DNA from: a virus
Lineage: Duplodnaviria; Heunggongvirae; Uroviricota; Caudoviricetes
Length of the DNA: 40,176 bases
Virus record (IMG/VR): IMGVR_UViG_2698536646_000014
Direction: 5' to 3' (one strand)
The position numbers were made by a program, and so were the translations under genes. Positions 213 to 40,176 of this stretch are shown here, piece after piece (the stretch's first letter is position 1; each line of letters begins with the position of its first letter). The notes beneath the pieces are model-generated. The model did not search any database. It was not told the DNA's origin and worked only from the letters and a program-made list of their open reading frames with translations.

Positions 213-797
213 TTACTCCCTGACAGGGTTCGTAGGCCACTCAATATCAGGTGCAGTTGACGTATCAACACGGTTCAGCAATACCCGATACTTTTTCCAT
301 GCTTCCAGCAACGAGATTTCTTCCTCCGTTGCAATTTCCAGATCTGCAGCATCCTGAAGCGGCGCAATATGCTCACTGGCTACCTGCATCAGGTTGTTTT
401 TTGTTTCTTCCGCCTCCCGGATCCGGAACAGTTTTTCTGCTTCCGTATCCTTCACCCAGGCTGTGCCGTTCCACTTCTGAAACTCCCCTTCCGGCGATAA
501 CCAGGTAACATTTTCCGGTAACGGACCGAGTTCAGAAATAAATAACGCGTCGCCGGAAGCCACGTCATAAACCGTTTTACCCCGATGATCTTCAACGAGA
601 TGCCACGATGACTCATCACTGTTGAAAACAGCCACGAAGCCAGCCGGAATATCTGGCGGTGCAATATCGGTACTGTTTGCTGGCAGACCTGTATGAGGCG
701 GAATATATGCATCACCTTCACCAATAAATTCATTAGTTCCGGCCAGCAGATTATAAATTTTTATGGTCCGTGGTTGTTCACTCATTCTGAATGCCAT
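213..797 (-). CDS. tfa: tail fiber assembly protein Tfa
   Basis: 194-aa ORF, near-identical over its length to lambda Tfa as recalled ([26 protein letters not shown]...). Start ATG overlaps the stf stop by 1 nt. Confidence 0.93.
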
Positions 798-33313: not shown

Positions 33314-34142
33314 GACGATGCCCTCCGCTGATATTCAGGAGACGGTGAATATGAAAATTAGCCTTATCCGCCAGACGAATACGTTCAGCTTGCAAGTTAA
33401 GAAGGGTTTCTACCAGAACCTGATGTGCCTGCGGATCCGAAAGAGTTACCTTGCGCAGAGCACGTAGTGCAGTTGTTACATAACTGAGTTTATGTAAGTC
33501 TTCATCATTCAGACGAGTGAGGGCTGGGACAGTAGCCATGATGGCAGCCTCCTTGATCGGTGAAATACTTCCACCACCGGAAACGCCAATTTCGCTGGTG
33601 GTGAACTGAACGGGGTTGGCGTAACCGGTGATCAAGGAAACCGGCGCATCTTTCGATGCCCCCGCCCAGCCCACCATAACTTTGATGTGAGCAAATGCGG
33701 ACGATAAAAAAGACGCTGGCGCGTCATATATCGCCTTGATCAATTCCAGGACGCCAATCCCGGCACCCGCTTTATAAGGTGCCTGAACAGTGTAACGTCC
33801 CGGAATGGCAGAATCAATGTGCTGGTGGTCCTTCACACTCAACAAAATCACGCCTGAATTTCCACAAAGGACTAAAGCACTCATGCGGGTAGTCTTTGCG
33901 AAGATAGATAACGCGCTGTGTTTCTGGCTCCCAACGAATAACATGAACATAAAGTCCTCTTCCGTCACGAAACCAGCGGTTAAGTTCCTGCACAACTCGC
34001 CCCCCACAGTCAGGTAAAGTTCTCTGTGGTTACTTACAGCCAGGTGATTTGGTAATCTGCATTCATGCCGTAACAACAGGTGTTCAGCGACGCTGACCAC
34101 CAGCTGTTGCGACAAACGGTTATTTGCCGTTAAACTGTTCAT
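33306..34142 (-). CDS. hypothetical early-operon protein
   Basis: 278-aa ORF; ATGA overlap with the upstream YdaT-like gene; no family recognised. Confidence 0.45.
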   Translation of the reverse strand: MNSLTANNRLSQQLVVSVAEHLLLRHECRLPNHLAVSNHRELYLTVGGELCRNLTAGFVTEEDFMFMLFVGSQKHSALSIFAKTTRMSALVLCGNSGVILLSVKDHQHIDSAIPGRYTVQAPYKAGAGIGVLELIKAIYDAPASFLSSAFAHIKVMVGWAGASKDAPVSLITGYANPVQFTTSEIGVSGGGSISPIKEAAIMATVPALTRLNDEDLHKLSYVTTALRALRKVTLSDPQAHQVLVETLLNLQAERIRLADKANFHIHRLLNISGGHRHA

Positions 34143-37673: not shown

Positions 37674-37814
37674 CGGAAGCGATAATTTTAACTATTGCCG
37701 CCCCTATAAAGAACCATTAAACAATAACGTGACGTAGCTATTGATAGTAAATGAAGCACTTGCAAAATAATTGCATTGCGTATATATACACACATGTGTT
37801 GTATTACAGCGATA

Positions 37815-38609
37815 ATGGTAAAGCAAATGATTAACTCTGAAGCAATTGAGCAACTAATGTGGCTATGGTCCTTATTTGACATTAAATTCTTATCTATTCT
37901 TGCCGCTGCCTTCACTATATATTTTGGCGTGCAAAAAATATCAAAAAAGGTGACAGTGTCGTATTCAGCAAATGCAAGTAGAATATATGACATGCATATA
38001 TCAACCATAATCCTGAATAATAAAAGAGATAATGCAATTGCTATATCTTCAATCAATATGGAGGTTGAAGGTAAAGGGATACTACAAGTTATTAAATTTG
38101 ACTCCCCTCTTCTTTTAAAGAACTATGATTCTTTAAAAGTTGAACCACCAAAATTTAGCAGCCTTTACAATAATGATGGCGTAGTTAAGTTAGATATTTC
38201 TGATAAGTTTCATTTTTATATAATCACGACATCTGGAGATGAAATTAAATGTATTTCTGAAAATAAATATGTAGCACCAAACATGGAAAACAAAATAGCT
38301 ACAGACATAAGAAAATTTAATGGCATTGTCTTAACAAACAGAATGTCTTATATTTTTTTCTATGCAAATGACAACGGAGAGAAATACTGCATAATAGATG
38401 TTTCATTGTTCATAAATGGTGACAACCCATTTCATTTTAATTTTTTAAAAGAAGATGAATTAAGAGATTTTTCTAGCATCCTTATTAGTTACGGATATCA
38501 CCAACAGTTTAAAAGTTATGCATTGTTTAAAATAGACAACCATCTTGCTCCTTCTTTGGTTTTAAATAAATCAATGATAGAAAATAATATTATTGAAATG
38601 AATAAGTAA
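37815..38609 (+). CDS. AT-rich gene for an N-terminally membrane-anchored protein of unknown function (candidate exclusion/abortive-infection protein)
   Basis: About 264 aa; one N-terminal hydrophobic helix (LMWLWSLFDIKFLSILAAAFTIYFGV); Asn/Lys/Ile-rich; very low GC versus neighbours; own promoter-like TTGCAA - about 17 bp - TATATA (about 37760-37788). Start 37815 or 37827. Confidence 0.6.
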   Translation: MVKQMINSEAIEQLMWLWSLFDIKFLSILAAAFTIYFGVQKISKKVTVSYSANASRIYDMHISTIILNNKRDNAIAISSINMEVEGKGILQVIKFDSPLLLKNYDSLKVEPPKFSSLYNNDGVVKLDISDKFHFYIITTSGDEIKCISENKYVAPNMENKIATDIRKFNGIVLTNRMSYIFFYANDNGEKYCIIDVSLFINGDNPFHFNFLKEDELRDFSSILISYGYHQQFKSYALFKIDNHLAPSLVLNKSMIENNIIEMNK

Positions 38610-38645: not shown

Positions 38646-38927
38646 ATGAATACCTTGTTTTTACTGATGGCTGAATTCAATACCCCAAACATTGAACTCT
38701 CAGCAGTTAGTCAAAAATACTTTGGTATGAGTCCAGCCACAGCAGAAGCAAAAGCAAACGCTTGTAAGTTGCCTGTACCTACATATCGCATCGGTACATC
38801 ACAAAAAGCAAAACGTTGCATCAATATTCAGGATCTTGCGGAATACATAGACAAAAGACGAGAAGAAGGACGTATCGAGTGGGAACAGGTCAGAACAGGC
38901 AAACAGAAGGGCAAAGAACATCACTAA
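38646..38927 (+). CDS. PrtN-like transcriptional activator (pyocin-activator family)
   Basis: 93-aa ORF MNTLFLLMAEFNTPNIELSAVSQKYFGMSPATAEAKANACKLPVPTYRIGTSQKAKRCINIQDLAEYIDKRREEG; GGAGA RBS. Confidence 0.6.
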   Translation: MNTLFLLMAEFNTPNIELSAVSQKYFGMSPATAEAKANACKLPVPTYRIGTSQKAKRCINIQDLAEYIDKRREEGRIEWEQVRTGKQKGKEHH

Positions 38928-38929
38928 AG

Positions 38930-38956
38930 AAAAAACCCGCCTAAAGGCGGGTTTTC
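38930..38956. terminator. bidirectional intrinsic terminator between convergent operons
   Basis: aaaaaacccgcc-taaa-ggcgggtttt. Confidence 0.75.
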
Positions 38957-38974: not shown

Positions 38975-39148
38975 TCATGCTGCTTTGCGACGACGAAGCT
39001 TACCCTGCTGCTCTTTACCAGAGACAGTAGCGTGAGTGAACGCATTAGGAGCAGCCTTCATCAGAACTTCAACAGCAGCACCCATACCTGCGAATGCTTT
39101 CATTGTGTCGAACTTAACCTGTGGCTTGGTTGCTTTTTGATCTTCCAT
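38975..39148 (-). CDS. small basic protein (57 aa), not in ORF track
   Basis: ATG preceded by GGAG at 8 nt; translation MEDQKATKPQVKFDTMKAFAGMGAAVEVLMKAAPNAFTHATVSGKEQQGKLRRRKAA; ends 2 bp before the bidirectional terminator. Confidence 0.4.
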   Translation of the reverse strand: MEDQKATKPQVKFDTMKAFAGMGAAVEVLMKAAPNAFTHATVSGKEQQGKLRRRKAA

Positions 39149-39187: not shown

Positions 39188-39607
39188 TTACTCATCATCA
39201 ATAGATGATACGCAATATTTATTTTTAAATTTAAGGTTCTTTGGCGTAACTTCATCAGATATATCAAAACCGTCCAGAATTCTATTGAATGTAGCTTCTG
39301 GCATATCATCATGAACGGAAATCTCACCCGATCGCTGCTTTCTAACCATGTTATCCACTCGCCAAATTATAGCTTCAGCGTAAACAACATAACTTGGATG
39401 CTTGATAAAGCGATGATCACCAGAATTCAAGACGCAAGACGGATCGTGGGGGACACCATCCTTGATACTAGAAATATTAACAACTAAAACACAATAACAA
39501 TCGTTAACGGGGTAATAAACAGGATCATTACAAATCACATGAAGATGATTGCATGGCCCAGTTGGGGCAAGCACAGTTCCTTTCCTGTATGGCTGATAAT
39601 CCGTCAT
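39188..39607 (-). CDS. 139-aa protein of unknown function; candidate toxin/effector partner of the upstream Panacea-domain gene
   Basis: ATG overlaps the upstream gene stop (ATGA); no membrane segment; several Cys/His; no family recognised. Confidence 0.55.
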   Translation of the reverse strand: MTDYQPYRKGTVLAPTGPCNHLHVICNDPVYYPVNDCYCVLVVNISSIKDGVPHDPSCVLNSGDHRFIKHPSYVVYAEAIIWRVDNMVRKQRSGEISVHDDMPEATFNRILDGFDISDEVTPKNLKFKNKYCVSSIDDE

Positions 39608-40176
39608 GATAATTGCAAAGAAAATTCCTTAAGTTTCTGAGATTCTTCCATTTTGCCAATTATACGATTAGCCTCATCCTCGCTTTTACCCTCACTGATC
39701 AGCATTTCTTTCAGGTCTATAGGCTTACGAGAATTGCCAGGATTGTGCCACTCTGGACAAACGCTTTCTAAATGCGTCATGTTTGCGAGATCAAATCGGT
39801 TCATATGCCCATACAGAGAATAGATTTCATCTAAAATCCGGATATCTGCACGGCTCAACTCATCAAAGACCTCGTCTGCATCCATTTCCCTCGGATCTGA
39901 ACGCAACAACACATCATGCCCGTTCGTCTCTATCAGGTTGTACCAGTAGTCACCAATACCTTCAGCCTTACCACGAATCAAGTTCAGCGTATTCGACATG
40001 ACTGGACCAAATTTCATAGAGTAAAGGCTATCTTCGCCGATCATCCTGCCATGCTTCAAAATCGACTTGCGGTTAGACAGATAGAGCAGCTTCATCAATT
40101 TCAGATATGCCATGCGCCCACCTCGCTTAAGAAGTAGGTATGCAGCCATTTGAGCTACTTTTTCTTCGCAAAACAT
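39604..40176 (-). CDS. Panacea-domain (DUF4065) protein, putative PanA-type antitoxin; ORF reaches the window edge
   Basis: N-terminal signature ...AAYLLLKRGGRMAYLKLMKLLYLSNRKS...YSMKFGPV (KLqKLLY...GPV pattern). First in-window codon is ATG at 40174-40176, so true start could lie beyond the window. Confidence 0.6.
   Translation of the reverse strand: MFCEEKVAQMAAYLLLKRGGRMAYLKLMKLLYLSNRKSILKHGRMIGEDSLYSMKFGPVMSNTLNLIRGKAEGIGDYWYNLIETNGHDVLLRSDPREMDADEVFDELSRADIRILDEIYSLYGHMNRFDLANMTHLESVCPEWHNPGNSRKPIDLKEMLISEGKSEDEANRIIGKMEESQKLKEFSLQLS

Follow-up and report, generated by a model that had tools for sequence, protein, structure and literature searches.

A prophage-borne Panacea gene pair of Escherichia coli with a predicted MazF-fold partner assigned to PanT cluster T6

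At one end of the window, the 40,176-nucleotide stretch of viral DNA analysed here (IMG/VR record IMGVR_UViG_2698536646_000014), we identified two adjacent minus-strand genes, panA and panT, that are a new example of the known PanA/T6 pairing of antitoxin and toxin, in this case carried by an E. coli prophage. They do not represent a new toxin. The domain identity of PanA, the predicted fold of PanT, the synteny of the two genes and the membership of PanT in cluster T6 are results of the present analysis. We consider it likely that the pair is a type II PanAT cassette in which PanA holds the MazF-fold PanT and in which free PanT blocks translation, probably as an endoribonuclease. The features of the pair are as follows.

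39604..40176, minus strand: panA, encoding a 190-aa standalone Panacea/DUF4065 protein; its ATG is the final three bases of the window.
39604..39607, minus strand: ATGA stop/start overlap (panA TGA and panT ATG), read from the sequence.
39188..39607, minus strand: panT, encoding a 139-aa putative toxin with a predicted MazF/Kid/CcdB-type fold and extra C-terminal helices; PanT cluster T6 family.

The Panacea gene and its coupled partner

The preliminary description of this DNA had assigned the upstream gene to the Panacea/DUF4065 proteins, and a profile search bears this out. PanA matches Pfam PF13274 (SocA_Panacea) over residues 27-137 with 67.9 bits (E 1.8e-18), far above the cut-off of 25.7. 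It also matches phrog_1281 in PHROG, and it carries no N-terminal accessory domain. Both signature motifs, KLMKLLY and FGPV, are present, the latter at residues 56-59. The GPV motif (residues 57-59 here) is critical for neutralisation by Panacea (PMC8832971), and among 29 orthologues G57 never varies, with P58 and V59 kept in at least 90%.

PGAP places the start of PanA (WP_000458583.1, "Panacea domain-containing protein") at the same codon as the ORF in the window. In E. coli A14 (locus L001), where the stretch is 100% identical, a GAGG Shine-Dalgarno sequence is found 8 nt 5' of this ATG. The protein begins MFCEEKVAQ, and its orthologues share the pattern MF.E.K.AQ. A longer, 232-aa form used in one GenBank annotation was rejected in view of this shared N-terminus and of the GAGG sequence before the ATG. 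In protein clusters built at 90% identity, the cluster that holds the 139-aa toxin also contains 190-aa PanA sequences and has a 190-aa protein as its representative; this mixture is probably an artefact of clustering, brought about by fused gene calls or read-through (members of 232 and 169 aa), and it accounts for the absence of the exact protein as a separate cluster from the word-indexed search described below.

The stop codon of panA overlaps the start codon of the 139-aa ORF in the sequence ATGA at 39604..39607, as had been described before, and to judge from the sequence this is the translational coupling point of panA and panT. The panT ATG is not preceded by a well-spaced Shine-Dalgarno sequence, which fits coupling by termination and reinitiation.

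RefSeq/PGAP begins PanT elsewhere, at the GTG at 39574, 11 codons later than the ATG at 39607, and so reports a protein of 128 aa (WP_014640052.1). We rejected this start on the basis of codon-level conservation upstream of GTG 39574. Across 19 orthologous panT genes, residues P6, R8, K9, G10 and T11 are conserved but are encoded by varying synonymous codons: in this stretch proline is written with all four of its codons, arginine with AGG, AGA, CGG and CGC, and glycine again with all four. Only 3 of the 19 orthologues have GTG at the RefSeq start position. G10 is invariant, and strand beta-1 of the structural model begins at this residue. The synonymous codon variation, the invariant glycine and the position of beta-1 together indicate that the 139-aa reading from ATG 39607 is the real gene. 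The RefSeq start drops 11 conserved residues, including Gly10, and masks the ATGA coupling.

The arrangement of the two genes is conserved well beyond E. coli. A scan of one genome per species yielded 32 PanT loci from Gamma-, Alpha- and Betaproteobacteria, and in all 29 loci with a readable upstream region the adjacent ORF on the 5' side, in the same orientation, encodes a Panacea protein (169-227 aa; best Pfam Panacea E-value 6.9e-28). The two genes overlap by four nucleotides (-4) in 18 of these 29. Beyond the pair, the 113 flanking ORFs of 21 loci represent 102 different Pfam families, none of which occurs more than twice. As the flanks do not recur, panA and panT appear to form a self-contained mobile unit.

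Predicted fold and family of PanT

The 139-aa ORF had been described as belonging to no recognisable family. With respect to sequence models this stands: PanT has no significant match in Pfam, NCBIfam or PADLOC, its sole PHROG match is PHROG 19071 (function unknown), and phmmer against PDB sequences found nothing. Sub-threshold matches to ICMT and DapC were set aside as noise. With respect to structure and published catalogues it does not stand, given the MazF fold predicted for the protein and its place in a catalogued cluster, T6. A word-indexed search recovered 62 clusters of PanT homologues in Enterobacterales, Vibrio and Shewanella. An exhaustive profile search extended the family to 2,703 representatives at 50% identity with E <= 1e-3, and to 929 with E <= 1e-10. 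Nearly all members are about 130 aa long.

The AlphaFold2 model of PanT, built on 54 homologues, has a pLDDT of 90.1 and a pTM of 0.84. When this model was used as a Foldseek query, the best 50 matches were all MazF, the best of them with a probability of 1.00. In the ranking by fold, CcdB stood below ten MazF/Kid structures. We predict from the model that PanT has a MazF/Kid/CcdB-type fold. None of 92 diverse family members matches Pfam PemK at E <= 0.1, and an hmmsearch of the PanT profile against PDB sequences recovered no MazF. Profile alignment by hhalign gave a probability of only 0.33 against E. coli MazF, and likewise 0.33 against a hand-typed five-sequence MazF/Kid/EndoA/ChpBK alignment. 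The link between PanT and MazF thus rests on structure and not on sequence.

Across the wide family H21 is invariant, and L22, D55, C58, G63, H65, F67, S72, Y76, G113 and S117 are at least 90% conserved; the enterobacterial subfamily is additionally invariant at H23 and C26. The catalytic residues of E. coli MazF are Arg29 and Thr52. In a low-confidence alignment of the two proteins, H21 falls at MazF H28, L22 at Arg29 and S46/S47 at T52, and the conserved H21, D55, C58 and H65 of PanT differ from the Arg29/Thr52 set. Given that the conserved residues differ from those of MazF and that the weak alignment sets Leu22 at the position of Arg29, the chemistry of PanT is uncertain; we infer that it is probably that of an RNase. 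Alternatively, the pair could be a PanAT cassette with a toxin that is not an RNase and that acts by CcdB-like gyrase poisoning, or by another, possibly metal-dependent, chemistry involving His21, Asp55, Cys58 and His65. We regard this as improbable. With regard to the F-plasmid CcdAB system, CcdB stands behind the MazF/Kid structures in the fold ranking, the antitoxin is unrelated to PanA, and the T6 member that has been tested inhibits translation, not replication (PMC8832971).

Both the name of the Panacea domain and a catalogue of the toxins that accompany it come from Kurata et al. 2022 (PNAS, PMC8832971). In the portion of Dataset S1 available to us, cluster T6 is labelled "EndoA/PemK/MazF-family RNases" on the basis of HHpred (PMC8832971). 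According to the same portion, T6 antitoxins have no N-terminal domain, and the antitoxin gene precedes the toxin gene, typically with an overlap of -4 or -1. Two T6 entries there, each listed once, are Pantoea septica LMG 5345 (-4) and "Yersiniaceae bacterium 2016Iso4" (-1). Both genomes were recovered in our analysis. The PanT of Pantoea septica LMG 5345 (locus L009; overlap -4) is 56% identical to the protein described here, and that of Chimaeribacter/"Yersiniaceae bacterium" 2016-Iso4 (locus L008; overlap -1) is 55% identical; gene order and overlaps at both loci are the same as in their T6 entries in that portion of the dataset. As two genomes listed under T6 carry homologues at 55-56% identity with the same overlaps, we place the 139-aa PanT in cluster T6 on sequence grounds, as far as the available entries allow. 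The accessions WP_000458583 and WP_014640052 are absent among the listed entries available to us from the supplements of two Atkinson/Hauryliuk-lab papers. The suggestion that the partner founds a new toxin family is not supported, as structure prediction and fold search give a MazF/Kid/CcdB fold and PanT cluster T6 was catalogued in 2022. Its reading as a toxin remains the best one.

One member of T6 has been validated. The Pseudomonas moraviensis toxin (WP_083201923.1) is toxic in E. coli, is neutralised by and pulled down with its PanA, and selectively inhibits incorporation of 35S-Met, a translation-specific effect (PMC8832971). The corrected N-terminus of the P. moraviensis PanA, MIFSEQKVAQ (PMC8832971), matches both MFCEEKVAQ and the orthologue consensus. 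The two pairs are alike in having a standalone Panacea antitoxin with a near-identical N-terminus, antitoxin-then-toxin order, a -1 or -4 overlap and a toxin of about 130 aa for which an EndoA/PemK/MazF-like structure is predicted. They differ in setting, as the P. moraviensis pair is recorded as "NotPhage" in the available entries whereas the pair described here lies in an E. coli lambdoid prophage, and in the invariant H23 and C26 that the enterobacterial subfamily adds. A second PanT profile search returned no named P. moraviensis protein among its matches. By analogy with this homologous pair (PMC8832971), PanT in the prophage would be toxic, would be neutralised directly by PanA and would have translation as its target.

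These properties would not apply if the genes were a conserved phage accessory pair that does not act as a growth-arresting toxin-antitoxin system in E. coli, with a 139-aa protein that is non-toxic or that acts only on foreign nucleic acid or in phage regulation. Such a pair would have precedents: eight predicted PanTs showed no toxicity in E. coli (PMC8832971), and an E. coli phage-borne PanA pair of cluster T1 is recorded as "not Toxic" in the available part of the same dataset. We nevertheless give this alternative only a slim chance. The ATGA-coupled antitoxin-then-toxin order is strictly kept across three proteobacterial classes amid unrelated flanks, as is typical of self-contained toxin-antitoxin cassettes. 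The fold predicted for PanT is a classical toxin fold of such systems, and the toxicity of the tested T6 member was seen in E. coli itself (PMC8832971).

Among other known systems, MazEF and Kis-Kid (PemIK) have AbrB/SpoVT-like antitoxins (MazE, Kis) in place of the Panacea domain found here. In contrast to their toxins, PanT has no Pfam PemK match, does not evidently conserve MazF Arg29 and has another H/D/C/H set, and its chain continues for about 40 extra C-terminal residues that form further helices. The type VI system SocAB of Caulobacter has the same antitoxin domain as PanA (PF13274 SocA_Panacea), but its toxin is SocB rather than a MazF-fold protein, and it works by delivery to ClpXP where direct binding is expected for PanA. 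Although SocA is the founding Panacea-domain antitoxin, as the Pfam name SocA_Panacea records, and although direct and proteolytic modes need not exclude each other (PMC8832971), it is very improbable that PanA neutralises indirectly, as a proteolytic adaptor to ClpXP: with the NCBIfam SocA equivalog NF047745 it reaches 13.5 bits where 190 are required, ClpXP and Lon are dispensable for neutralisation by the tested PanAs and the T6 pair forms a stable complex (PMC8832971), and standalone Panacea domains neutralise directly (PMC10440598).

Position of the pair in the prophage

panA and panT reside in a lambdoid prophage whose integration site is dusA. The features next to the pair are as follows.

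38646..38927, plus strand: PrtN-type excisionase gene (xis), convergent to panA-panT.
38931..38956, minus strand: intrinsic-terminator-like hairpin (11-bp stem, then a T-run) between the convergent xis and panA-panT-orf57; found at the same site in L001.
38975..39148, minus strand: 57-aa ORF (orf57), phrog_2741 (E 8e-36), with its own GGAG Shine-Dalgarno sequence, between panT and the hairpin.

The pair had been described as cargo at the edge of the prophage. It is indeed edge cargo of a lambdoid prophage, and its position can be refined: panA and panT lie between the convergent xis and the prophage/dusA junction, which makes this the att-proximal end. In phage SKA5, xis is followed by orf57, the 139-aa gene, panA, a dusA fragment (attP) and int. 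The further claim that the pair ends at a bidirectional terminator did not hold, as orf57 intervenes and a terminator scan flagged the hairpin at 38931..38956 on the minus strand only.

The small gene orf57 may be co-transcribed with panA and panT. We rejected it as a third component of the cassette: it is absent from all 32 related PanT loci, and phage mEp460 has it without the pair. In mEp460 the place of panA and panT is taken by an unrelated 177-aa hypothetical gene, so the slot between orf57 and attP is variable.

The pair, at no less than 80% of a 1,577-bp query, is present in 193 of 5,426 complete E. coli genomes, and the xis/orf57 portion on its own is much commoner, with 742 genomes. 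Homologous pairs adjoin the integrase in Yersinia phages YeP1-3, lie among late genes in a Klebsiella phage and adjoin the portal gene in the P2-like Pseudomonas phage Sirocco. Homologues are rare on plasmids (three records). From these sequence comparisons we take the pair to be phage-carried accessory cargo. In the Sirocco record (OR683410.1; L037, 1501..1863), the PanT homologue is 48% identical to the protein described here and lies directly 3' of a PanA-sized gene; it is unannotated, and a 44-aa antisense ORF is annotated instead.

Several other elements of the prophage were recorded in passing. In the leftward operon, xis is directly preceded by a very AT-rich ORF of 260-277 aa (37776..38609, plus strand) with a GC content of 27-32% against about 45% around it. 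Its product has a hydrophobic N-terminus, belongs to phrog_14996 (function unknown) and has no match in Pfam, NCBIfam or PADLOC. It seems to be a second cargo gene gained by horizontal transfer, and of the cargo in this region it may be the more novel.

Three Rfam matches exceeded their gathering thresholds: IS009 (256..454, minus strand, 220.9 bits), C4 antisense RNA (33594..33681, minus strand, 82.3 bits) and the Hfq-binding sRNA isrK (33706..33782, minus strand, 64.2 bits). The last two adjoin each other in the immunity/early region. Just past the start of the window, near DinI and the integrase, E. coli A14 (L036, 42371..44270) has a reverse-transcriptase gene that overlaps a gene for a SLATT-domain protein (PGAP annotation). 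The two look like a retron/Abi-like defence pair, and with them at its other end the prophage may have cargo at both ends.

Proposed mechanism and biological role

We propose that panA and panT would be co-transcribed from a promoter just past the end of the window, and that translation coupled through the ATGA overlap would ensure that the toxin is made only together with its antitoxin. The standalone Panacea protein PanA would bind PanT directly and keep it from acting. Were PanA lost or inactivated, PanT would be released and would then stop growth through a block of translation, probably as an endoribonuclease. Candidate triggers are a shut-off of host expression, a phage-derived trigger and loss of the prophage. 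The pay-off would be abortive infection or exclusion of other phages, or else stabilisation of the prophage.

A role of panA and panT in phage defence is a plausible hypothesis. The distribution of the pair would suit stabilisation of the prophage just as well as defence or exclusion. Neither PanA nor PanT has a match in PADLOC-DB 2.0 at E <= 1, and a literature search found no report in which a Panacea/MazF-like pair was assayed against phages. [quoted passage not shown] A stronger version for the present family, which we think unlikely, is that prophage PanA/T6 pairs are anti-phage systems in which Panacea senses phage and frees a MazF-fold toxin whose His/Asp/Cys/His centre replaces Arg/Thr. 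If this were true, the family would form a branch of the MazF/CcdB superfamily that differs in mechanism and acts on a target of its own, RNA or other.

As the partner of PanA is explained as a MazF-fold toxin of a catalogued family with one validated representative, it is not to be pursued as a new toxin class. The interest that remains lies in a large family that has no model, in conserved residues that depart from those of MazF, and in a natural E. coli prophage setting. When clustered at 50% identity, the T6 family comprises about 2,700 clusters; neither Pfam nor NCBIfam has a model for it, and it is annotated everywhere as "hypothetical", so that a family model would improve annotation. 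As cargo of several temperate phages, in slots that vary, and with a natural E. coli host, the pair is a handy system for testing phage sensing by Panacea antitoxins.
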